Assembly: GCA_038904015.1 (NCBI GenBank)
Contig: JBCKKZ010000003.1
Coordinates: forward strand, 2,068-66,067
Direction of reading: 5' to 3'
DNA: 64,000 nucleotides
From: Burkholderiales bacterium
GTDB lineage: Bacteria; Pseudomonadota; Gammaproteobacteria; Burkholderiales; SG8-39
Shown here piece by piece: positions 6,664-45,037 of this stretch. The stretch's first letter is position 1; the number at the start of each line of letters is the position of its first letter. A program made the position numbers and the translations under genes. The notes beneath the pieces are model-generated. The model ran no database searches. It had not been told where the DNA came from and saw only the letters and a program-made list of their open reading frames with translations.

Positions 6664-7242
6664 ATGCCGCGTGTGAAGGGGGAACGGCGGCTCGAGATCC
6701 TCAAGGCCCTTGCCGGGATGCTCGAGCAGCCGAAGTGGGGCAAGATCACGACCGCAGCGCTCGCCGGGAAGCTCGACGTCTCGGAGGCGGCGCTGTATCG
6801 CCATTTCGCGTCCAAAGCGCAGATGTACGAAGGCCTCATCGAGTTCATCGAGACTTCCGTCTTCAGCGTCGCCAACAAGATCGCGCAGGACGAAACCGAC
6901 GGCCGCAAGCAGGCGGCGAAACTGGTCGAGATGCTGCTTTCCTTCGCCGAAAAGAACCCCGGCATGGTGCGTGTTATGACCGGCGACGCCCTGGTCGGCG
7001 AGCACGAGCGCCTGCAGGCGCGCATGAACCAGTTCTACGACCGCTTCGAAGCCACCCTCAAGCAGGCCCTGCGCTCACCCGGCGCCGACGGCGGCCAGAA
7101 ACCATCGGACGCCGACGTCTCCGCGCATGCCGGCCTCCTCACGCGCTACATGATCGGCTGCCTGCACCAGTACGCGAAGTCCGGCTTCACCAAGAAACCC
7201 ACCGAAAGCTACGCCGCGCAGCGGCGCTATCTCGCCGCGTAG
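6664..7242 (+). CDS. slmA: nucleoid occlusion factor SlmA (TetR family)
   Basis: RRLEILKALAGMLEQPKWGKITTAALAGKLDVSEAALYRHFASKAQMYEGLIEFIE. Also has the argB-nucleotidase-slmA neighbourhood. Confidence 0.8.
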   Translation: MPRVKGERRLEILKALAGMLEQPKWGKITTAALAGKLDVSEAALYRHFASKAQMYEGLIEFIETSVFSVANKIAQDETDGRKQAAKLVEMLLSFAEKNPGMVRVMTGDALVGEHERLQARMNQFYDRFEATLKQALRSPGADGGQKPSDADVSAHAGLLTRYMIGCLHQYAKSGFTKKPTESYAAQRRYLAA

Positions 7243-7349
7243 CCGGCGCGGCGCAGATCGTCGGCCACGGTGAGCAGAATGACCCGGTCGTCATCGACCA
7301 CCAGGACGCAGGGCCGGCGTTGCGGGGACTCGATCGGTTGGGCGTTCAT
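7227..7349 (-). pseudogene. response-regulator receiver fragment (first ~40 codons only)
   Basis: My own translation: MNAQPIESPQRRPCVLVVDDDRVILLTVADDLRRAGYAAR*. The stop falls inside the slmA 3' end. Too short for the ORF track. Confidence 0.45.
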
Positions 7350-7378
7350 GGGCAAGACCTACATTCCGCGAAGTTCGG

Positions 7379-7891
7379 CTAGCCGCGCCCGAGTACCTGG
7401 ATGGCGTGGGCGATCGCGGCTGCGTCCATCCGGTCTTTGGGACGCACACCGGACTTTGTTTTCAGCAGGCCCTCGAGGCTCAGCACGCGCAGTCGGACGT
7501 CGTCGAGCAGGACTTCCTGAACGTAGGGACGCAGATCGTCCCAGGAGAGACCCGCGGCCATCGGCAGGACGTCCACCGTGATCTCGTCGTTGACGCGAAT
7601 GGCGTAGCGCTTCTGCTCTCCGAATACATCCGGTTCCGCCGCAAGCTCGCGAGCCGCACCGTCGGGCAGGCGCGAGAGCGCGAGAATCCAGCGGCGGCTG
7701 TTCTCGGGCGAGGGGTTGACGAGAACGTCGATGTCTTCGGTGAGGCGATTGAGTCCATGGGCGCCGAGTGCGTAACCGCCGATCAGCGCATACTCGACGC
7801 CCGCTTCATCGAAGTACCGGGCCACGCGCTTGACGTCCTCCCAGGTCGCCGGGCGCGTGTACTCAGCCACGCGAGCGCGCAGTCGCGACAA
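7379..7891 (-). CDS. minimal nucleotidyltransferase-fold protein (AbiEii/DUF2204-like)
   Basis: ALIGGYALGAHGLNRLTEDIDVLV matches the GG-x-AL...R-x-T-x-DID NTase signature. 170 aa. Overlaps the upstream small gene. Confidence 0.6.
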   Translation of the reverse strand: MSRLRARVAEYTRPATWEDVKRVARYFDEAGVEYALIGGYALGAHGLNRLTEDIDVLVNPSPENSRRWILALSRLPDGAARELAAEPDVFGEQKRYAIRVNDEITVDVLPMAAGLSWDDLRPYVQEVLLDDVRLRVLSLEGLLKTKSGVRPKDRMDAAAIAHAIQVLGRG

Positions 7892-8099
7892 TCACCTCGG
7901 TGAGCCAGCGTTCCTGGTCGCGCGTCATCTCTTCGTGACTGGCGTAGCGGATTACGCCCTTGGGTACCCGGGTGAGCCGGTTTACCAGCGTCGCGAAGGC
8001 CGCGCGAGCCTCGGGCGAAGGAGGAACTCCGAGCGGCGGTTCGGTGCGTCGGCCGACTATCCTGCCGATCGGTTGCTGGTCGGGGAAATTCGAGGCCAT
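7863..8099 (-). CDS. small partner protein of the NTase (putative antitoxin-like)
   Basis: 78 aa. ...RVPKGVIRYASHEEMTRDQERWL motif. Its 3' end overlaps the NTase start by 29 nt. Confidence 0.45.
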   Translation of the reverse strand: MASNFPDQQPIGRIVGRRTEPPLGVPPSPEARAAFATLVNRLTRVPKGVIRYASHEEMTRDQERWLTEVIVATARSRG

Positions 8100-8116
8100 G
8101 CGGAAATTCTACGCCT

Positions 8117-8559
8117 TTGCTTCTCGATAGACAGATCGCGGACGCGCTCGAGGGCGGCGGCTGCGAGGTCTTCGTCGCGCCCTTCGAGGTGCGGCTGCCG
8201 CGCGGCGGTGAGGCCGACGAGCAGATCGACACCGTGCTCCAGCCCGACCTCACCGTGGTATGCGACCTGAAAAAAATCGACGAGCGGGGCTGCCGCGGCG
8301 CGCCGGATTGGGTCATCGAGGTGCTCTCCCCCGCCACCGCGGCCCACGACCAAACGGTCAAGTTCGCGGCGTTCGAACGCGCGGGCGTGAAGGAATGCGG
8401 GTTCGTGCACCCGGCCGACAGGACCGTGGCCGTTTATTCTCTCGCCGGCGGAGTCTACGGACGGCCCGCGATCTCCGAGCTGCAGGGAAGCCCTGCGGCG
8501 CTCATCTGGAAGTCGTTGCCTTCTGGCACGCGAGCCGTGGAGAAGGTCCCTCGCTCTGA
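8117..8559 (+). pseudogene. Uma2-family endonuclease fragment (N-terminal ~1/3 missing)
   Basis: CEVFVAPFEVRL...LQPDLTVVC...RGCRGAPDWVIEVLSPATAAHDQTVKFAAFERAGVKECGFVHPADRTVAVY is the C-terminal PD-(D/E)xK half of Uma2/DUF820. An in-frame stop lies just upstream of the TTG start. The ORF then runs antisense into moeB. Confidence 0.5.
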
Positions 8560-9306
8560 CTATTTCGCGCAAACCGCGCAGGCCGGATCCTTCTTGACTC
8601 GCACCGTGCGCCACTCGGATCGTTTGGCGTCGAGCAGCAGTAATCGTCCATTCAGTGTTTCGCCTGCCGCGGTAAGCAGCTTCACCGCTTCCATCGCCTG
8701 CAGCGAACCGACTACGCCTGTGAGGGGCGCGAACACGCCCATCGTGGAGCACTGCACTTCCTCGATCGCGCCGTCTTCCGGGAAGAGGCAGGCGTAGCAG
8801 GGGGCGTCGGGCTTTCTCAGGTCGAAGACCGCGACTTGGGCGTCGAAGCGGATCGCGGCACCGGAGACCAGTGGCTTGTGTCCCACGATGCAGGCGCGGT
8901 TGAGGGCGTGGCGGGTGGCGAAGTTGTCGGAGCAATCGAGGACGACGTCGACGTCGGTGAGTAGCGTCTGCAGGTCGTTCGCTTCGATTCTTTTCTGCAG
9001 GGGAACGATCTTTACGTCGGGATTCAGGGCGGCGAGGGCGGTGCGGGCCGCGTCCACTTTTGGCGTGCCGACGGAATCGGTGCGGTAGAGGATCTGGCGC
9101 TGCAGGTTGGTGAGGTCGACTTTGTCGGGGTCGGCGAGGGTCAGTTTGCCGATGCCGCTGGCGGCGAGGTAGAGGGCGGCGGGGCAGCCCAGGCCGCCGG
9201 CGCCGATGATCAGGGCGTGCGCGGCGCGCAGCCGCTCCTGGCCCTCGATCCCTATTTCATCGAGCAGGATGTGGCGGCTGTAGCGGAGGAGCTGCTGGTC
9301 GTTCAG
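8560..9306 (-). CDS. moeB: molybdopterin-synthase adenylyltransferase (MoeB/ThiF family)
   Basis: The frame is continuous upstream of the ORF-track start and encodes (L)NDQQLLRYSRHILLDEIGIEGQERLRAAHALIIGAGGLGCPAALYLAASGIG (Rossmann GxGxxG). No ATG/GTG/TTG lies in frame before 9057. CTG at 9306-9304 aligns with the usual Met. Confidence 0.8.
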   Translation of the reverse strand: MNDQQLLRYSRHILLDEIGIEGQERLRAAHALIIGAGGLGCPAALYLAASGIGKLTLADPDKVDLTNLQRQILYRTDSVGTPKVDAARTALAALNPDVKIVPLQKRIEANDLQTLLTDVDVVLDCSDNFATRHALNRACIVGHKPLVSGAAIRFDAQVAVFDLRKPDAPCYACLFPEDGAIEEVQCSTMGVFAPLTGVVGSLQAMEAVKLLTAAGETLNGRLLLLDAKRSEWRTVRVKKDPACAVCAK

Positions 9307-9357
9307 GGGGTGGAAAAACTGGCTTCCCGCCTTCGCGGGAATGACGTGGCGCTTTGC

Positions 9358-10782
9358 TCAGTTCGATTTCGCGGCCGGTTTGGTTTGCGCGACCGAGGGC
9401 GTCTGGCCCTTGAGCGGCTCGCCCTTGAGGAACGCGATCGACTGCATGAGCTGGAAGTCGTCCTTGGAGCCCAGTTCGATCGGCTTCGGCGGCTCGGAAG
9501 TCGCGGCCTGCGCCGGGGTCATCGCAGCGGCTTTCGCCTGCGCCGGTGTGGCCTTGGCGGCTTCCTTTTCCTTCTCGCCGTTGCCGAGGTGCCGGTTCAG
9601 GTCCGCTTCGCGCACGCGCGCGGCGAGGGTGGCGCCGGGTTCTTCGACGATCACGTCAGGCGTGATGCCCTTCGCCTGGATCGAGCGGCCGCTGGGGGTG
9701 TAGTAGCGCGCGGTGGTGAGCTTGATGGCGGTGTTGTTGCCAAGCGGCATGATGGTCTGCACCGAGCCTTTGCCGAAGGTCTGCGTGCCGACGATGGTCG
9801 CGCGCTTGTGGTCCTGCAGCGCGCCGGCGACGATCTCGGACGCGGAGGCCGAGCCGCCGTTCACCAGCACCACCATCGGCACCGTCTTCACCGCAGCGGG
9901 CAGGCCCTTCATCATGTCGTTCTTGGCGCCGCGCAGGTAGTCTTCGTTGGTGGCGTAGAACTTCTTGCGCGCGTCTTCGGTGCGGCCATCGGTCGAGACC
10001 ACCAGCAGCTTTGGCTGCAGGAAGGCCGCCGAGATCGCGACCGCGCCGTAGAGCAGGCCGCCGGGATCATTGCGGAGATCGAGCACCAGGCCCTTCAGCG
10101 GCCCCTGCTTGAACATGGTTTCGAGGTGGTGCGCGAGGCTCTCCGGGGTCGCTTCCTGGAACTGCGACACCCTCACCCAGCCGTAGCCCGGTTCGATGAC
10201 CTTGGACTTGACGCTCTGCACCCGGATCACCGCGCGCGTGAGCGTGACGATGATCGGTTGCGGCTCGCCTTTGCGCGCGATTGTCAGCGTGATCTGCGTG
10301 TTGGGCTTGCCGCGCATGCGCTTCACCGCGTCGTTCAGCGTCATGCCCTTGACCTGCGCATCGTCCAGCTTGACGATCAGGTCGCCCGGCTTGACCCCGG
10401 CGCGATACGCCGGCGTATCCTCGATCGGCGAGATCACCTTGACCAGGCCGTCTTCCATGCTGACCTCGATGCCGAGGCCGCCGAACTGGCCCTGCGTGCC
10501 CACCTGCAGTTCCTTGAACGCCTCCGCGTCGAGGTAAGCCGAATGCGGATCGAGCCCCGCGAGCATGCCGTTGATCGCCTCGGTGATCAGTTTCTTGTCC
10601 TCGACCGGTTCGACGTAGTTCTGCTTGATCGCACCGAACACTTCGGTGAAGGCCCGCAATTCCTCGACCGGCAGAGGAGAGCGCGTGGCGAGCTGCCCGA
10701 TCGCCTGGAAGTTCAGGCTGACCAGTATTCCCGCCACCACGCCCAGCGTGATCAGTCCGAAGCTCTTGAATTTGCCGGTCAT
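9358..10782 (-). CDS. ctpA: carboxy-terminal processing protease (S41)
   Basis: PDZ plus S41 motifs (GIEVSMEDGLVKVISPIEDTPAYRAGVKPGDLI...VLVNGGSASASEIVAGALQD...GKGSVQ). ATG overlaps the envC stop (ATGA). Confidence 0.9.
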   Translation of the reverse strand: MTGKFKSFGLITLGVVAGILVSLNFQAIGQLATRSPLPVEELRAFTEVFGAIKQNYVEPVEDKKLITEAINGMLAGLDPHSAYLDAEAFKELQVGTQGQFGGLGIEVSMEDGLVKVISPIEDTPAYRAGVKPGDLIVKLDDAQVKGMTLNDAVKRMRGKPNTQITLTIARKGEPQPIIVTLTRAVIRVQSVKSKVIEPGYGWVRVSQFQEATPESLAHHLETMFKQGPLKGLVLDLRNDPGGLLYGAVAISAAFLQPKLLVVSTDGRTEDARKKFYATNEDYLRGAKNDMMKGLPAAVKTVPMVVLVNGGSASASEIVAGALQDHKRATIVGTQTFGKGSVQTIMPLGNNTAIKLTTARYYTPSGRSIQAKGITPDVIVEEPGATLAARVREADLNRHLGNGEKEKEAAKATPAQAKAAAMTPAQAATSEPPKPIELGSKDDFQLMQSIAFLKGEPLKGQTPSVAQTKPAAKSN

Positions 10783-11957
10783 TTCAGTTTTACCCACTGT
10801 AGGGGATCGAATGGTTTGCCCAGATGCCGCAGTTCAAAGTATAGACCTGTTTGCTCGTTGCCCCCGCTGTGCCCGACAGTTGCGAGAGGCTCGCCCAGAT
10901 TAACCGAATCGCCGGTCTGCTTGAGTAAAGATTCGTTATTGCCGTAGATCGACAGGAAGGCTTGGCCGTGATCCACGATCAGCAGGTTGCCAAAGCCCCG
11001 CATCCAGTCGGAATACACCACCCGGCCGGCGCCAACCGCGCGCACCGGCTCGCCTTCCGGGGCCCGGATGAAGACGCCTTTGGTGGCAAGGCCCCCGTCT
11101 GTATGTGGAGCGCCAAAGCGCCCTGCAAGTTCCCCTCGAACCGGCAGGAGCAGGCTCCCCTTGAGGGTGGAAAACACGCCGCCGGCGGCCCCGGTGCCCG
11201 CCTCGGGCACGGCAGTGACGCGGGCATAGCCCGCGCCGGGCCGCGCCGCGAGCAGCTTGCCGATTTCCTCGACCAGGCGTGCGAGCCGCGATTCGTCGGC
11301 CAGCAGCACCTTGATCTGCTTCCTCGCGTTGCGGATCTCGCCGGCGATGCGCTCCAGGAGCCGACGGTATTCGCGCCGCTCCTTCAACAGGTGTTCGCGG
11401 TCGCTGCGGCTGCGCCCCTCGATGGCCGCCAGCCCGCGCGCCTTGTCCTCGGAATCGGCTTTCAAACGGGCGGCTTCGACGAGCCCGCCCCGCTGGGCCT
11501 CGATCATTTGCGCCGCGGCGCGGGACACGTAGGTCAGGTAGTGAAGTTTGCGCGCGGCGTCGGCCAGGTCTTCTCCCGCGAGCGCGAGACGTACGAAATC
11601 GGGCGCACCCCCCGAGATGCCCGCGACCGCGCGCGCGGCGAGCAGGCGCCCGAGCGCGGCCTGGCCGGCCTCCAGCGATCGCTCCTGCAGGGCCCGGCGC
11701 GCGGCAAGGTCGGCGATGGCCGCGCGCGCGTCGCGGGCTTGCGCCTCCACCGCCTGCAGCGCGCGGTTGGCATCCGATATCGCGACCTCCGATGCCCGCA
11801 GCGCGTCGCGCGCGTCGCGCCGGCCGGATTCCCGGCCCTCGAGCTCGGTTCTGAGCGATTCGATGCGCGCGCGCAGGGCGGCAAGATCCTCCTCTCGCGT
11901 AGCGCCCTGCGCCGACGCGGCTGCGAGCAGTAGCGCGACGAGAAGGTTCCTGTTCAG
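10779..11957 (-). CDS. envC: murein hydrolase activator EnvC-like (coiled coil + LytM/M23 domain)
   Basis: Signal peptide (L)[17 protein letters not shown], a long coiled coil, and C-terminal ...[24 protein letters not shown]...[15 protein letters not shown]. The only plausible start is CTG 11957-11955, overlapping the gpmA stop (CTGA). Confidence 0.8.
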
Positions 11958-37123: not shown

Positions 37124-37198
37124 TGGGGCGTCGCCAAGCTGGTCTAAGGCACCGGATTTTGATTCCGGCATTCCTAGGTTCGAATCCTAGCGCCCCAG
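37124..37198 (+). tRNA. tRNA-Gln (anticodon UUG); CCA encoded at 37199-37201
   Basis: Hand-folded cloverleaf: acceptor tggggcg/cgcccca, anticodon stem ccgga/tccgg with loop ttTTGat, T arm ctagg-ttcgaat-cctag. 75 nt. Close to the classical proteobacterial tRNA-Gln sequence. Confidence 0.92.
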
Positions 37199-37214
37199 CC
37201 ATCCAATCCACCAA

Positions 37215-39030: not shown

Positions 39031-39759
39031 TTGGCCGGCACCATACGCCCCGACTCTATCCGGCTCATTGTCGGCCTGGGAAATCCGGGCAAAGACTACG
39101 AACGCACCCGCCACAATGCCGGTTTCTGGCTGGTGGAGCGTTTCGCCGTGCAATCGGGGCTGGCGCTGCGCAAGGACGGCAAGTACCAGGCGCTGGTCGG
39201 CCGGCTTAGTTCGAACGGCGCCTGGCTGGTGCTGCCGCAGAGTTTCATGAACGCGAGCGGGCATGCGGTGCAGATGCTGGCCGGTTTTTTCAAGATCCAG
39301 CCCGCCGAGATCCTCGTGGTGCACGATGAGCTCGACTTTGCGCCGGGCATGGCGAAGATGAAGCAGGGCGGCGGCATCGCGGGCCACAACGGGCTGAAGG
39401 ACATCTCGCAACGCCTCGGTTCGCACGACTACTGGCGCCTTCGCCTGGGCATCGGCCATCCGGGCGACAAGAGCGTGGTTGCCGGCTACGTGCTGCAGAA
39501 GCCCTCGGCGCAGGATCGCGAGGCCATCGACGCCGCGATCGTGCGGAGCATCGACGTGTTGCCGCTGTGCCTGTCCGGGGATCTGCAGGGGGCGATGCAG
39601 AAACTGCATTCGCATAAAGAAGAAAAGCGGGAAGAAAAGCCGGTAGAGAAAACACCCGAACCCAAGCCGGAAGCAATGCCCGTATTGAAAGCCGAGCCGC
39701 CGCAGGAAAAGCCCGCCGCCAGGGGGCTGTTCGGTTCCCTGTTCGGCAAGAAGAAATGA
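39031..39759 (+). CDS. pth: peptidyl-tRNA hydrolase with ~49-aa Lys/Glu/Pro-rich C-terminal extension
   Basis: [24 protein letters not shown]...PQSFMNASG...VVHDELD...GHNGLKD. Stop overlaps the ychF start (ATGA). Confidence 0.9.
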
Positions 39760-40865
39760 GCCTGCGCTGCGGCATCGTGGGCCTGCCGAACGTGGGCAAG
39801 TCCACGCTGTTCAATGCGTTGACGAAATCCGGCATCGCGGCGGAGAACTATCCGTTCTGCACCATCGAACCGAATGTCGGGATCGTCGAAGTTCCCGATC
39901 CGCGCCTGGCGGGCCTCGCTTCGATCGAGAAGCCGCAGAAACTCATCCCGGCAGCGGTCGAGTTCGTCGACATCGCCGGGCTGGTCGCCGGCGCCTCCAA
40001 GGGCGAGGGTCTGGGCAACCAGTTCCTCGCCAACATCCGCGAGACCGATGCCATCGTGCACGTGGTGCGCTGCTTCGAGGACGCGAACGTGATCCACGTT
40101 GCGAACAAGATCGACCCGCTCTCGGACATCGAAGTGATCAACACCGAGCTTGCGCTGGCGGATCTCGCCGCGGCCGAGAAGCAGCTCTCCAGAAATGCCA
40201 AGCTCGCCAAGACCGGCGGCGACAAGGATGCGCAGCGCCTGGTCGCAGTGCTGGAGAAAGCGATCGCGGCGCTGGACCAGGGCAAGCCGGTGCGCGCCGT
40301 GGATTGGTCGAGGGAAGAGCTGCAGGTACTCAAGCCGCTGTTCCTGCTCACCATGAAGCCGACGCTGTACGTGGCGAATGTCGCCGAGAACGGCTTCAAG
40401 GACAACCCGCTGCTGGCCGCCGTGGAAACGCATGCCCGCAAGGAGAAAGGCACGCAAGGCGCCGCTCCGGTGGTGGCGATCTGCGCCGCGATGGAATCGC
40501 AGATCGCCGACATGCCGGACGAGGACAAGAAGCTGTTTCTCGCCGACATGGGGATGGCCGAGCCGGGCCTCGCGCGCGTGATCCGCGCCGGCTATAAGTT
40601 GCTCGGACTGCAGACCTATTTCACCGCCGGGCCGAAGGAAGTGCGCGCCTGGACCGTGCCGGTGGGCACCACCGCGCCGCAGGCGGCGGGCGTGATCCAC
40701 ACCGATTTCGAGCGCGGCTTCATCCGCGCGGAAGTCACGACCTACGACGACTACATCGCTTGCAAGGGCGAGGTGGGCGCCAAGGAAGCCGGCAAGCTGC
40801 GCGTCGAGGGCAAGGAATACGTCGTGCATGACGGCGACGTCATGCACTTCCGCTTCAACGTCTGA
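39756..40865 (+). CDS. ychF: ribosome-binding ATPase YchF
   Basis: [19 protein letters not shown]...NKIDP...[11 protein letters not shown]...[14 protein letters not shown]. Confidence 0.95.
40819..40857 (+). repeat. left copy of the 39-bp direct repeat (genuine ychF 3' end)
   Basis: cgtcgtgcatgacggcgacgtcatgcacttccgcttcaa; 36/39 identical to 42616-42654 (hand alignment). Confidence 0.85.
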
Positions 40866-40891
40866 GCAAAATCGCGGACCTGGCCTGAGTT

Positions 40892-40911
40892 CCACGGCGG
40901 ATTCCCGCCGT
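40892..40911 (+). terminator. hairpin downstream of ychF (possible terminator, no U-tract)
   Basis: cacggcgg-attc-ccgccgtg perfect 8-bp stem, 26 nt after the ychF stop. Confidence 0.35.
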
Positions 40912-40931
40912 GCAGTGGATCGCCTGACTGG

Positions 40932-41000
40932 TATCGACAAGAACGATAATTGACATGTATCGTTTAAGTCGATACATTAAGTTTATCGATAATGCCGATA
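40932..41000 (+). promoter_or_regulatory. hipBA promoter with three TATCG-N7-CGATA operator palindromes
   Basis: Palindromes at 40932-40948, 40958-40974 and 40984-41000, exactly 26 bp apart. TTGACA at 40950-40955 and TACATT at 40973-40978 (17-bp spacer) are interleaved with them. Confidence 0.6.
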
Positions 41001-41011
41001 AGGCCGCCCAC

Positions 41012-41260
41012 ATGAAACAGATCCTGACCCACGGCTCCCAGCTCGGCCAGATCCTGGCGACGCGGAGGCGCGCTGCCAAGCTCTCGCAACGTGCACTGGC
41101 CGCCAAGTTGGCGATCAGTCAGAACCGTCTGTCCGAGATTGAAACGAACCCCGGCAATCTCACCGTCAAGCGGCTGCTGGAACTCGCGAATCTGCTCGGC
41201 CTGGAACTGGTGATCCAGGACAGGCCGACCGCGCAACGCTCACCCAGAACGGAGTGGTAG
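41012..41260 (+). CDS. hipB: HipB-like XRE-family antitoxin/repressor
   Basis: HTH LGQILATRRRAAKLSQRALAAKLAISQNRLSEIETNPGNLTVKRLLELANLLGLEL. 3 nt upstream of hipA. The start at 40955 was rejected because it lies inside the promoter/operator DNA. Confidence 0.75.
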   Translation: MKQILTHGSQLGQILATRRRAAKLSQRALAAKLAISQNRLSEIETNPGNLTVKRLLELANLLGLELVIQDRPTAQRSPRTEW

Positions 41261-41263
41261 GCG

Positions 41264-42604
41264 ATGGGCCGAAAATCCCGCGCGCGCGCGCTTTCCGCAT
41301 GGGTCAACGGCAAGCTGGCCGGCGAGTGGCGCATTCCGGCCAGGGGCGAGACCGAATTCCAGTATGACTCCGGCTGGGTCGAATCCGAGGAAGGGCGGCC
41401 GCTCTCGCTTTCCCTGCCATTCAGCCTGGATCGGGGCTCGATAAAAGGCAGGCCCGTCGAGGCCTACTTCGACAACCTGCTGCCCGATGCCGATCCCATT
41501 CGAAAGCGGATTCAGGATCGCTTTCACACCACTTCGCGCAGCGCATTCGAGCTCCTCGCGGCGATCGGGCGCGATTGCGTTGGCGCGGTCCAGTTGCTTC
41601 CCTCCGGCGAACAACCGAAAAACGTGCGCACGATCGACGCGATGCCGCTCTCCGAAGCCGAGGTCGAGCGGGCTTTGGTTGAAACCGTATCGCCGGCCTC
41701 CTTCGCGGCACACCCCGCGGGCGATGAGTTTCGCATTTCGATCGCAGGCGCCCAGGAAAAAACCGCCTTCCTGCTGCACGACGGCCGCTGGTGCCGGCCG
41801 CTGGGCGCCACGCCCACGACGCACATCTTCAAGCTGCCGCTAGGGCTCGTGGGCGGGATGCAGGCCGACATGCGCACGTCGGTCGAAAATGAATGGCTCT
41901 GCGCAAGGATATTGCGCGCCTACGGGCTGCCTGTCGCCGGCTGCGATATCGCGCAATTCGGCGCGCAGAAGGTGCTGGTGGTGGAAAGATTCGACCGGCA
42001 GCTCCATTCGAGCGGGAAATACTGGCTGCGCCTCGTGCAGGAGGATTTCTGCCAGGCCACCGCCACGCCTTCCTCGACGAAATACGAGCGCGACGGCGGA
42101 CCGGGGATGCTGGAGATCGCGCAAATACTCAGAGGGTCGGTGAATCGCGACACCGACCTGGCGTGCCTGCTCAAGGCCCAGCTGCTGTTCTGGATGCTCG
42201 CCGCCACCGACGGTCACGCGAAGAACTTCAGCCTTCGTATCTTGAGCCAGGGGCGCTTTCAACTGACCCCGCTCTACGATCTCCTGTCGATCTGGCCCAT
42301 CATGGGGGAAGGCCCCGGCAAGATCTCATGGCACAACGCCAGGCTTGCGATGTCGGTGCGCGGCAAGAACAAGCACTACCTGTTGAAGGACATCCGGCGC
42401 AGGCACTTCAATGACCTGGCCGCCCGGTGCGGACTGGGAGAAACGGCGGAGCCGTTGATCGAGGACATTCTCGCCGCGACGCCGGCAGTGATCGCGTCCG
42501 TCCAGCAGGATTTGCCGAAGGGATTTCCGCAGCGCGTGCTCGGTGCGATCCTGAAAGGGCTGTCGCAATCGGCCAAGCAGCTTGAGGCGATGCCTGCCGC
42601 GTGA
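41264..42604 (+). CDS. hipA: HipA-family serine/threonine kinase toxin
   Basis: N-terminal coupling domain (LSAWVNGKLAGEW...) and kinase core (ISIAGAQEKTAFLL...THIFKLP...DGHAKNFSL...LTPLYDLLS). Full length, 446 aa. Confidence 0.9.
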   Translation: MGRKSRARALSAWVNGKLAGEWRIPARGETEFQYDSGWVESEEGRPLSLSLPFSLDRGSIKGRPVEAYFDNLLPDADPIRKRIQDRFHTTSRSAFELLAAIGRDCVGAVQLLPSGEQPKNVRTIDAMPLSEAEVERALVETVSPASFAAHPAGDEFRISIAGAQEKTAFLLHDGRWCRPLGATPTTHIFKLPLGLVGGMQADMRTSVENEWLCARILRAYGLPVAGCDIAQFGAQKVLVVERFDRQLHSSGKYWLRLVQEDFCQATATPSSTKYERDGGPGMLEIAQILRGSVNRDTDLACLLKAQLLFWMLAATDGHAKNFSLRILSQGRFQLTPLYDLLSIWPIMGEGPGKISWHNARLAMSVRGKNKHYLLKDIRRRHFNDLAARCGLGETAEPLIEDILAATPAVIASVQQDLPKGFPQRVLGAILKGLSQSAKQLEAMPAA

Positions 42605-42615
42605 AGGCAGGAGCG

Positions 42616-42654
42616 CGTCGTGCGCGACGGCGACGTCATGCACTTCCGTTTCAA
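42616..42654 (+). repeat. right copy of the 39-bp direct repeat (orphan ychF-3'-like segment)
   Basis: cgtcgtgcgcgacggcgacgtcatgcacttccgtttcaa, 12 nt after the hipA stop. Would encode [13 protein letters not shown] but has no proper stop or upstream gene body. Confidence 0.85.
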
Positions 42655-42685
42655 GATCGGCGATAGTCGCGCCGAGCTCAGGGCG

Positions 42686-43225
42686 TCAGAACGACCAGAC
42701 CTGCATGGTCCGGTACATTCCGGCGAGTTCCGTGTCGTTGAGCGCGGGCAGCGTGCTGCCGGCCGGGTCAACCTTGTCGGCGAGCTCGAGCACCATGGTG
42801 TTCATCGCCGCGAGGCGGCGTGCGAGCACTTCGGCGATCGCGGCGGCGATTTTGAGCGCGGCCGTCGATCCGCCGTCGAGCAGCGACCGGAAACGCTGCA
42901 CCGGGAGGCGCAGCACGCGCGAATCGACGATGGCGCGGCCGGTCGCGGAGCGCACGTCGGCGGTGATCAGCGACATCTCGCCCAGGACCCCGCCCACGCC
43001 CACGCGCGCGAGCGAGCGATCGCCCCGCGGGCCGCGCTTGATGACCTCGATCTCGCCCGCCACCACCAGGAAAAGGCCGTTGCCCGGATCGCCTTCGTGG
43101 AACAATTCCTTGCCGGCTGCAATGTCCTGCATTTCAATGATTTCGGCGATGGCATCAACTTCAGCGCCCGAAAGCGCGCGGCACAGCGCCATTGCCATTA
43201 ACGCGGCGGATTGTTCTTTGGCCAT
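42686..43225 (-). CDS. cyclic-nucleotide-binding domain protein
   Basis: ...ELFHEGDPGNGLFLVVAGEIEVIK...GGVLGEMSLITADVRSATGRA (cNMP phosphate-binding cassette). Confidence 0.75.
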   Translation of the reverse strand: MAKEQSAALMAMALCRALSGAEVDAIAEIIEMQDIAAGKELFHEGDPGNGLFLVVAGEIEVIKRGPRGDRSLARVGVGGVLGEMSLITADVRSATGRAIVDSRVLRLPVQRFRSLLDGGSTAALKIAAAIAEVLARRLAAMNTMVLELADKVDPAGSTLPALNDTELAGMYRTMQVWSF

Positions 43226-43318: not shown

Positions 43319-44785
43319 ATGCACATGGCGATCGAGCTGGACAATCGAACCAAGATCCTGGCGGGCGTGGTGGTGCTGGCTGCGGTCGGCGCCGGCGCGT
43401 GGTTCTTCTTCCTGGAGGATTTTCTCCGCGAACCCCCACCAAAGCCCGCTGCGGCCAAAAGCGCGCCTGCCGGTGCGCCGAAACAGGCCGATGCAGCCAA
43501 GCCGGCCGCCGATGCGCCAAAGCAGGCCCCGGATGACGCGAAGCAGGTCACGGCGGCCACTGCGCCCCCACCCGGTGCGAAACCGATCCCGACCAATCTG
43601 GATAAATTGATCGCGGAGGTGATCGAAACGTCCGGCGTGAATGCCTACTACCGGACCCTGGGTCGCGAGGTCATGCTCAGGGCCGGCGGCGGCAACGAAG
43701 CCCGCAAGCAGAGAACGAAACCGGCCGACTACCAGGCGACGGTGGAAATCGTGAACCGCGTGTTCGAGCCCGCGGCGATGACCGCGGAGATCGCCGCGAA
43801 CCTGAAAACCGGCAGTTTCGACGCCGAGCGCATGGCGCGTTTTCTCGAACTGCTGCGCCAGCCGATCGCCGTCAAGATGGCCGCGCCGGAGATGCGCAGC
43901 GTCACGCCAGAGGCGACGAAGGAGCACACGGACAGCCTGCGCAAGAATCCGCCTCCGGCTGCGCGTATCAAGATGATCCAGACGCTGGATGATGTGACCC
44001 GCACCTCGGAGGTCGGCATCGACATGGCGGGGGCGCTGGCCCGCGACATGGTCGACTCGATGCTCGAATCGATGAAGAAGCCGGGCCAGAACGTTCCCAA
44101 CGAAGCCCAGCAGACGGTCGGCTCTCAGTTGAATGCGATGCGCAATCAAGCGCGTGCGCAGATCCGGGAGGTGATGTACGTGATGTACCGCAAGACGAGC
44201 GACGAAGAGATGTCCGAGTACGTCAAGCTGCTCGACACCGACACGGGCAGGTGGGGGTGGGAGCTGCTCGCGAACGCGCTGCGCCCGGCGGTCGTAACCC
44301 GTGGCAGCGCACTGGGCCGGGAGGCGGCGCATTTCGCGATGGCCACAATGACGGCGGGCAAGGAGTCCGCGGCACCGCGGCCTGTGGCGCAGCAGGAGCA
44401 GGCTCCCGCCGAGAAACCCGCCGCCGCCCCGGTAGCGGTAGCGGCAGCGGTTGAAGCGCCCGGCTACCAGCGACCGGCCAATATCCGTGAGGTCTACGTG
44501 CGCTACAACGACGTGATCACCGCGACCGTGATGCGCGATCGCGCGGCGGTGAAGGAACTGCTCGACGACGGCAAGAATCCGAATGCGCGCCAGAAGGACG
44601 GCATCACGCCGCTCATGGTCGCGGCTTCGAATGGCGATACCGAGATCGTCTCGATGCTGCTGGCCAAAGGCGCGGATCCGAACCTGCGCGCGGGCAGCAG
44701 AAGCGCGTTGTCCATGGTGAAGGCCCGCGGCAGCGCCGGCGCCGGGATGGTGCAGCTGCTGGTGCGCAGCGGCGCCAAGGATTGA
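43319..44785 (+). CDS. membrane-anchored protein with Pro/Ala/Lys-rich linker, DUF2059-like middle region and C-terminal ankyrin repeats
   Basis: TM ILAGVVVLAAVGAGAWFFFL. ...YRKTSDEEMSEYVKLLDTDTGRWG... ANK repeats DGKNPNARQKDGITPLMVAASNGDTEIVSMLLAKGADPN. Confidence 0.65.
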   Translation: MHMAIELDNRTKILAGVVVLAAVGAGAWFFFLEDFLREPPPKPAAAKSAPAGAPKQADAAKPAADAPKQAPDDAKQVTAATAPPPGAKPIPTNLDKLIAEVIETSGVNAYYRTLGREVMLRAGGGNEARKQRTKPADYQATVEIVNRVFEPAAMTAEIAANLKTGSFDAERMARFLELLRQPIAVKMAAPEMRSVTPEATKEHTDSLRKNPPPAARIKMIQTLDDVTRTSEVGIDMAGALARDMVDSMLESMKKPGQNVPNEAQQTVGSQLNAMRNQARAQIREVMYVMYRKTSDEEMSEYVKLLDTDTGRWGWELLANALRPAVVTRGSALGREAAHFAMATMTAGKESAAPRPVAQQEQAPAEKPAAAPVAVAAAVEAPGYQRPANIREVYVRYNDVITATVMRDRAAVKELLDDGKNPNARQKDGITPLMVAASNGDTEIVSMLLAKGADPNLRAGSRSALSMVKARGSAGAGMVQLLVRSGAKD

Positions 44786-44824: not shown

Positions 44825-45037
44825 TTGGCTTTCAACGGCAGCCTGGCGACGCTCGCGGACGTGGTCCGGCACTATTCCGAGATCAATCCGGACCGCCTGC
44901 ATTCCGACGGCGAAAGCCTGCTCAAACCGCTGCGCCTGAGCGCCGCGGAGGCGGCCGATCTGGTCGTGTTTCTCGAATCGCTTACCGAGGCTTCGAGCGC
45001 GCTGCCGCCTAGGCAGCCGAGCGCAGCCTGTCGCTGA
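44825..45037 (+). pseudogene. di-heme cytochrome c peroxidase, C-terminal fragment only
   Basis: AFNGSLATLADVVRHYSEINP...LLKPLRLSAAEAADLVVFLESLT matches the CCP/MauG C-terminus. No heme-binding part upstream. Overlaps the desaturase 3' end. Confidence 0.5.

Follow-up and report, generated by a model that had tools for sequence, protein, structure and literature searches.

How a hipBA toxin-antitoxin (TA) pair came to lie between ychF and the gene of a cyclic nucleotide monophosphate (cNMP)-binding protein is the question raised by a 64,000-nucleotide (nt) stretch of a Burkholderiales genome (GenBank assembly GCA_038904015.1, contig JBCKKZ010000003.1), hereafter termed the window. The genes ispE, tRNA-Gln, prs, rplY, pth and ychF are followed there by hipB, hipA and the convergent cNMP-binding gene, so that an insert of 1.75 kb separates ychF from the latter (Table 1). 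A prediction made earlier from the sequence alone, here called the original prediction, had proposed that a self-contained hipBA cassette was inserted at the end of ychF by an unexplained mechanism. The comparative analysis reported here establishes that hipBA is indeed an insertion at the ychF 3' end, and we consider it likely (with a probability of about 0.8) that the insert is the eroded remnant of a P4-type integrative island, encoding a tyrosine integrase and AlpA, that integrated site-specifically at this position. This reading is based on empty sites in relatives, on an element-derived ychF end, on fragments of the integrase gene (int) and of alpA preceding hipB, and on copies of the ychF end at the putative left and right attachment sites (attL and attR). 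Additional support comes from intact elements at ychF bearing an integrase of the kind found in loci L026 and L176 (comparison loci are designated by L numbers), from erosion visible at the strain level and from a parallel case at a tRNA-Lys gene (L126/L127).

Empty and occupied ychF junctions

Empty ychF-cNMP junctions are present in at least five related lineages. At the empty sites L173/L174, L175, L256/L257 and L259-261 the two genes converge 15-44 nt apart, with neither hipBA nor a second ychF fragment between them, in a synteny where lolB-ispE-prs-rplY-pth-ychF faces cNMP-Ank-MauG. The ychF gene of L173/L174 is 88% identical to that of the window in nt sequence and 92% in amino acid (aa) sequence, and on a further contig (P0137), known from gene calls alone, the ychF and cNMP genes stand only 1 nt apart. 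The cNMP-binding protein has many close homologs, and the site is occupied in the near-identical strains L081 (GCA_038903915.1) and L172. These junctions bear out the proposed insertion at the ychF end: the cassette is not universal at this position, and relatives devoid of hipBA are also devoid of the second 39-nt ychF-like sequence described below. Among 80 species-representative ychF loci from GTDB, none has hipBA near ychF; with at most 89% aa identity and downstream flanks that are unrelated in every case, however, these loci, from among which L026 came, are too distant to be used as empty sites.

The end of ychF itself differs between the two kinds of site. In seven out of seven empty sites the gene ends in AAC/AAT GTA TAG or TAA (GTATAG/GTATAA), whereas in the occupied sites (the window, L081, L114, L026, L176 and L177) it ends in GTCTGA or GTCTAA; the window and L081 read AAC GTC TGA, followed by GCAAAATCGCGGAC…CTGAGTTC. 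The terminus of the window, together with a homologous flank, is also present in L114, a microbial-mat contig with 82% nt identity in ychF and with other downstream genes, and a related version occurs in L026, L176 and L177. The closer empty-site relatives L173/L174 do not have the post-stop flank of the window. Terminus and flank thus follow the inserted DNA and not the host lineage, which implies that the element supplied the present stop codon of ychF and its downstream flank, in agreement with the replacement gene end invoked by the original prediction. The YchF protein is complete, since the YchF-GTPase_C domain is matched over its full length. It is somewhat longer in the window than in most relatives (369 versus 363-364 aa), with the extra residues located some 120-130 codons before the C-terminus, and the YchF of the P0137 empty-site contig is likewise 369 aa long.

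Copies of the ychF 3' end at the borders of the insert

The two borders of the insert carry directly repeated copies of the ychF 3' end. Copy 1 (CGTCGTGCATGACGGCGACGTCATGCACTTCCGCTTCAA) and copy 2 are identical at 36 of 39 positions and are the sole matches in the window at up to three mismatches, with no match in 100 dinucleotide shuffles; the repeat had been predicted with the right length and identity, but with copy 1 placed 1 nt out of register (40819-40857 instead of 40820-40858). Its ungapped extension covers 46 nt at 87% identity (40813-40858 and 42609-42654), and a gapped alignment stretches over some 62 nt into the hipA stop codon (42602-42604), an extension that is weak. As anticipated, copy 2 lies 12 nt past that stop codon and is non-coding, belonging to no gene; it is separated by 31 nt from the stop of the convergent cNMP gene and matches the ychF ends of other genomes (L001 and L052) at 37 of 39 positions. 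The probability that the repeat arose by chance, or that the arrangement is ancestral and vertically inherited, is practically nil. That the 3' end of ychF is strongly conserved is all that speaks in favor of either notion, and both are refuted by the shuffles, by the multiple empty sites and by the fact that a second copy of the gene's own 3' end within 7 kb occurs in none of the 80 reference ychF loci.

On balance, we lean slightly towards interpreting copy 2 as the displaced native end of ychF. A complete attR would read …TTCAACGTATAG followed by the native spacer, and copy 2 lacks the last seven nt of ychF (CGTCTGA). In the spacer that follows it, the hexamer CGATAG (42661-42666) is possibly a degenerate native terminus: it stands one edit from the CGTATAG of empty sites, as do 0.4% of background 14-nt windows in what was a post hoc test. 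The flank after copy 2 bears no significant similarity to the element arm or to native spacers (p = 0.08-0.87). Regarding diagnostic bases, copies 1 and 2 both have CAC where all empty sites have CAT, and the CAT/CGC codon varies among empty sites, so that these bases do not single out the native copy.

Integrase and alpA remnants upstream of hipB

As originally stated, no integrase gene is present in intact form at this locus of the window, nor is an intact AlpA/excisionase gene, but the insert is not free of such sequences, for pseudogene pieces of int (GGCGGATTCCCGCCGTGC) and of alpA (AGTGGATCGCCTGA, corresponding to ...EWIA*) occupy positions 40896-40927. In the L081 strain, 71 additional nt separate the flank of ychF from the promoter of hipB, and the int piece of the window is continuous there with a fragment of some 60 nt, interrupted by an internal stop, that reads RIPAVRM*KRKEHFIPVP. 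This peptide matches residues 280-300 of the 423-aa L026 integrase at 14 of 21 positions (15/21 if the stop is replaced by K, and then 16/21 against the L176 integrase), and the underlying DNA is 87.5% identical to that of the L026 integrase over 40 nt. A search of 2.8 Mb with the K-substituted peptide yielded integrase genes only, with the same motif, in all 60 matches outside L081 and L026. The remainder of the L081 stretch (about 54 nt) encodes in another frame GPQAIGWPESEVSEWIA*, the C-terminus of an AlpA protein, which is 82% identical in aa sequence to the AlpA of L100/L101 and 94% in nt sequence over 34 nt. Intact alpA genes lie directly upstream of hipBA in L100, L101, L095 and L131, and those of L082-L086 are members of the Pfam family PF05930.

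The int and alpA fragments of L081 explain the insertion mechanism. Hence, with such fragments inside the insert and intact elements at ychF in L026 and L176, the notion of a self-contained cassette with an unexplained mode of entry no longer holds. Given that the integrase next to the att site is represented by a fragment only, we class the locus as a remnant and not as a functional island. The same fragments largely refute, and render very improbable, an autonomous hipBA cassette inserted independently of any recombinase with duplication of 39 nt of its target. Such a cassette would be in keeping with the lack of an intact recombinase in or near the insert, but the insert starts at the ychF stop and not at the boundary of the hipBA module. 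It would also be in keeping with the sharp boundaries of homology to hipBA modules in unrelated contexts, which extends from 40928-40930 through the hipA stop; such boundaries are to be expected in any case at some 83% nt identity, at which only constrained sequence stays alignable. An integron-cassette reading, prompted by homology that ends exactly at the hipA stop, was likewise set aside, since the locus shows no cassette array and the loss of alignable signal outside constrained sequence accounts for the boundary.

The hairpin that had been predicted between the repeats does have its stem (40893-40900 and 40905-40912), which spans the junction of the arm stub and the integrase fragment and is made up mostly of the latter, but it folds no better than shuffled sequence (z = -0.55). 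A role as terminator was rejected, as it has no T-run and a terminator scan makes no call. In L082-L087, a 19-aa C-terminal remnant of alpA is found some 170 nt upstream of hipB (e.g. L082 5581-5637), and an intact alpA is also present 3.4 kb further upstream. The persistence of an alpA stub beside hipB despite the distant intact gene suggests an ancestral alpA-hipBA linkage and joint movement of hipBA with the stub.

ychF as an attachment site in other Burkholderiales

Intact elements at the same site are found elsewhere in the order. In L026, a Burkholderiales metagenome-assembled genome, a P4-type integrase gene lies 195 nt after ychF and is followed by alpA-like and RepB-primase-like genes; its product comprises the Arm-DNA-bind_3, Phage_int_M and Phage_integrase domains. 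L176, the one intact example with both ends, harbors a 7-kb element that is bordered on either side by a ychF-end repeat and has CGGGTA motifs in each of its arms. It starts with the ychF 3' end and an integrase gene whose product is 83% identical to that of L026, carries HTH_36/DnaD-like, DnaB-helicase and Phage_tail_S genes, and ends in …CTGAATTTTGTTTTAACGTCTGA ahead of a native-looking terminator; the ychF-like part of its attR spans about 23 nt, stop codon included. The L045 locus was rejected as a further ychF-integrated element, its integrase being separated from ychF by birA and coaX. According to these data, the 3' end of ychF serves a family of P4-type tyrosine integrases in the Burkholderiales as attachment site, knowledge of which could help island-prediction tools and integrase prospecting. 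In the literature, ychF has been described as the target of serine-recombinase pipolins in Actinomycetota (PMC11551731), and a satellite prophage of S. pneumoniae has been reported to occupy the intergenic region on the upstream side of ychF (PMC10383233); no report of ychF as a target for a P4-type tyrosine integrase was found.

Evidence against a local island, and the possible transfer of an eroded unit

Several observations weigh against the interpretation of the insert as the remnant of an island that integrated locally. The ychF-like part of the window attR, at 39-46 nt and with the stop codon excluded, has a geometry unlike that of L176. Copy 2 stops at TTCAA and continues as GATCGGCGATAG instead of CGT(A/C)T(A/G)(A/G), and without the expected ychF terminus an extra small rearrangement must be assumed. 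Between the hipA stop and copy 2, which abut each other, no arm can be recognised, no CGGGTA arm-type motif is left near either copy, and the GC content of the insert is the same as that of the host. The 18 nt of int and 14 nt of alpA in the window are identifiable solely through L081. An intact island with both an integrase of the L026/L176 type and the hipBA family of the window was not found, and in none of some 90 hipBA loci is an integrase of this class clearly present at a distance of up to 10 kb; seven integrase queries against all hipBA loci returned one weak match, in L097, 5.6 kb downstream.

Part of this evidence could also be accommodated if a unit that was already eroded, comprising the ychF 3' end, the arm stub, the int and alpA fragments, hipBA and the ychF-like repeat, had come from another Burkholderiales lineage, entering by homologous or homology-facilitated illegitimate recombination anchored in the ychF 3' end and not through local integrase action. 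A repeat longer than that of the intact L176 element, and a hipA gene that abuts copy 2 without an arm, fit such a join, even though transfer, too, leaves copy 2 followed by a sequence other than the native terminus. The strongly diverged L114 (82% nt identity in ychF) has the same arm stub, with a deletion endpoint in its first 20 nt or so; the stub is joined straight to a 59-nt 3' remnant of hipA that is nearer to the hipA of the window (52/59) than to the second hipA of L114 itself (46/59), which suggests that the truncated state is older than the separation of, or the transfer between, the L114 and window lineages. However, the same distribution could result if the insert had been excised precisely in ancestors of the empty-site lineages, a donor with the exact structure was not found and decay demonstrably goes on in situ. 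We therefore regard the transfer of an eroded unit as rather unlikely. In L114, the region that follows ychF (6909-11341) contains the hipA remnant, a GNAT acetyltransferase gene on the minus strand, an unknown open reading frame (ORF), the gene of a 516-aa Fic-domain protein and, 2.8 kb downstream, the second hipBA, which is complete; it has the appearance of a small islet, rich in toxins, that occupies the same site in a different genus.

Erosion of the putative island

Returning to a locally integrated P4-type island, its erosion is continuing within the strain group: L081 and L172 have lost 54 nt (window 42619-42672), including most of copy 2, and the window has lost the 71 nt of int and alpA sequence that L081 retains. 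In the course of events that we envisage, a circular element with a ychF-like attP would have recombined with the gene to yield ychF-attL-int...alpA-hipBA-attR-cNMP. Successive small deletions, several of them at microhomologies, would then have eliminated int together with the larger part of alpA and whatever other cargo there was; a candidate deletion microhomology is GGCGGATTCC, which is present in the L177 arm and inside int. The hipBA pair may have persisted as an autoregulated addiction module, since the loss of such a module would be counter-selected while its neighbors were free to decay. The resulting scar is probably immobile by now, as it has no integrase, the int-proximal arm has been cut to 30 nt (GCAAAATCGCGGACCTGGCCTGAGTTCCAC) and copy 2 is without the terminal CGTCTGA.

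This trajectory agrees with a general model from the literature, whereby a mobile element brings in a TA system and streamlining of the loci linked to it ensues (PMC13617665), and the locus may be taken as a concrete instance of that model. As in the streamlined chromosomal TA systems of Belot et al. 2026 (PMC13617665), the TA pair of the window outlasts its carrier within a neighborhood that turns over fast; unlike the statistical association presented there, the window, L081/L172 and L114 provide a series at base resolution, complete with att scars and recombinase fragments. That series leads from the entry of an island into the 3' end of a housekeeping gene, through the stepwise loss of integrase, alpA and att scar, to an addiction module that stays behind. 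A stabilising effect of TA modules on islands has also been discussed (Van Melderen & Saavedra De Bast 2009, PMC2654758). The locus involves no new insertion mechanism, and we regard it as a clear but ordinary example of TA pairs stranded in chromosomes.

The locus may also be compared with P4-type islands and satellites in the 3' ends of tRNA or protein genes, of which CP4-57 at ssrA is an example. The window shares with them a target 3' end that is repeated directly at both borders, a restored gene end and empty sites in relatives; it differs in its target, ychF, and in keeping pseudogene fragments only, whereas the integrase adjoins attL in the intact relatives L026 and L176. Integration at the 3' end of a protein-coding gene has been described for SGI1 at trmE (PMC8409611).

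The hipBA module and its relatives

The presence of hipB and of a full-length hipA between the repeats, as originally predicted, is confirmed by Pfam (Couple_hipA, E = 2e-22; HipA_C, E = 8e-50), and only 3 nt separate the end of hipB from the start of hipA. Residues 10-430 of HipA align with E. coli HipA structures (E = 1e-88), and the alignment to 2wiu_A shows conservation of the motifs ISIAGAQEKTA (ISxAGAQEKTA) and TDGHAKNFS; the catalytic and autophosphorylation roles of these residues are assigned after E. coli HipA. More than 100 HipA homologs are 75-99% identical, nearly all of them 446 aa long, and the HipB proteins that partner them in some 90 loci share 77-91% aa identity with that of the window. 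Judging from these comparisons, the toxin kinase is apparently functional. The A/T-rich promoter/operator region was also correctly foreseen, as it contains a sigma-70-like promoter (TTGACA-17-TACATT) overlapped by three TATCG-N7-CGATA palindromes at a spacing of 26 nt, where none are expected. This layout predicts that HipB binds the palindromes and that hipBA is autoregulated through operators lying over its promoter. The module thus resembles HipBA of E. coli K-12 in a HipA that aligns over 420 residues, in an upstream helix-turn-helix (HTH) antitoxin and in palindromes overlapping a sigma-70 promoter, but its three operator copies differ from the four copies of TATCC-N8-GGATA that constitute the E. 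coli operator, and its host belongs to a betaproteobacterial lineage.

In L082-87 and L088-91, hipBA copies are located at the edges of island-like regions that encode AlpA, Gp49/HTH, Toprim-DUF3987 primase, Y2 transposase and IstB proteins, beside ordinary chromosomal genes. No integrase or recognisable island gene lies within 10 kb in L100, where alpA and hipBA are adjacent, and no HipA relatives were found in IMG/VR. A scan for att-like repeats around hipBA, covering 82 loci, gave three leads, with those at L088/L089 and L093 being short matches of 17-23 nt. In L126/L127 (9161-11798), a hipBA pair of the same family (77% aa identity) stands alone between a complete tRNA-Lys gene and a direct repeat of 306 nt (93%) whose start coincides exactly with the tRNA-Lys anticodon loop and which continues for 257 nt beyond the tRNA, without any trace of int or alpA at the locus. 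It appears that related elements have accreted in tandem at the L126/L127 locus, where the repeated arm contains GGGTA-type motifs.

With hipBA as the sole gene pair between target 3' repeats at two independent loci, namely the window (ychF) and L126/L127 (tRNA-Lys), it might be asked whether hipBA and its att repeats form an integrase-less mini-element that is moved between att sites in trans by related P4-type integrases. The concept exists for streptococcal elements, in which cis-mobilizable elements (CIMEs) are att-flanked, recombinase-less derivatives of integrative and conjugative elements and of integrative and mobilizable elements (PMC5704250). The window resembles CIMEs in being att-flanked, in having no recombination genes and in deriving by deletion from an integrative element; unlike in CIMEs, its att sites look defective and are being deleted. 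Its attR is without the terminal CGTCTGA and its int-proximal arm, at 30 nt, contains no arm-type motifs, the deletion of copy 2 in L081 and L172 argues against selection for mobility, and the int and alpA pseudogene fragments reveal descent from an autonomous element. In addition, the window and L126/L127 share neither att sites nor flanks and are better understood as convergent end-states of erosion. A mini-element is therefore improbable; if it did exist, this hipBA family would be a toxin-antitoxin "hitch-hiker" cassette for tyrosine-integrase islands and not a passive survivor.

Two further hipBA loci have suggestive surroundings. In L162 (also L128), a 42-nt direct repeat (93%; 9053-9094 and 11368-11409) brackets hipBA and a truncated GNAT-like region. 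Since a truncated OrfA-like frame of the IS3 type comes after its left copy, the repeats are probably solo insertion sequence (IS) ends, and the locus was rejected as an analogue on the grounds that they are IS3-like end remnants. In L117/L118 (8635-9749), a tRNA-Phe gene precedes hipBA by about 1 kb; a downstream repeat of the tRNA-Phe 3' end was not found within that locus.

Features of the locus and its surroundings

Table 1. Coordinates of features at the ychF-hipBA locus (positions in the window)
Feature	Position	Strand	Remarks
tRNA-Gln	37124-37201		
ychF	39756-40865	+	369 aa, intact; Pfam MMR_HSR1 and YchF-GTPase_C (1-84/84)
Direct repeat copy 1 (attL side)	40820-40858	+	within the ychF 3' end; ungapped extension to 40813
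Element-derived ychF terminus and arm remnant	40859-40895	+	CGTCTGA and 30-nt int-proximal arm remnant
Integrase pseudogene fragment	40896-40913	+	18 nt; continuous with the int stretch in L081
alpA pseudogene 3' end	40914-40927	+	14 nt
hipBA promoter/operator	40928-41011	+	A/T-rich
Operator palindromes	40932-40948, 40958-40974, 40984-41000		TATCG-N7-CGATA
Sigma-70-like promoter	40950-40978		-35 at 40950-40955, -10 at 40973-40978
hipB antitoxin gene	41012-41260	+	82 aa, HTH; Pfam HTH_3/HTH_31
hipA toxin kinase gene	41264-42604	+	446 aa; Pfam Couple_hipA and HipA_C
Direct repeat copy 2 (attR side)	42616-42654	+	non-coding ychF 3' fragment; ungapped extension to 42609
Spacer between copy 2 and cNMP stop	42655-42685	+	contains CGATAG
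cNMP-binding protein gene	42686-43225	-	Pfam cNMP_binding; native convergent neighbor of ychF in empty-site relatives

Beyond the cNMP-binding gene, the window differs from L081 by the absence of 1827 nt at 44833/44834, a segment that in L081 encompasses an Amidohydro_2 gene together with the greater part of a MauG/di-haem peroxidase gene. The empty-site relatives L175, L256 and L259 possess both genes as well, and a 70-aa ORF of the window (44825-45037) looks like a remnant of the MauG C-terminus. The central part of the ankyrin-repeat gene (43565-44439), which encodes an Ala/Pro/Lys-rich sequence, has no blastn match in L081 even though its flanks are 96-99% identical; by tblastn, the gene product matches L081 over residues 145-488 at 51% identity. 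This central part thus constitutes a hypervariable or replaced segment among strains that are otherwise near-identical.

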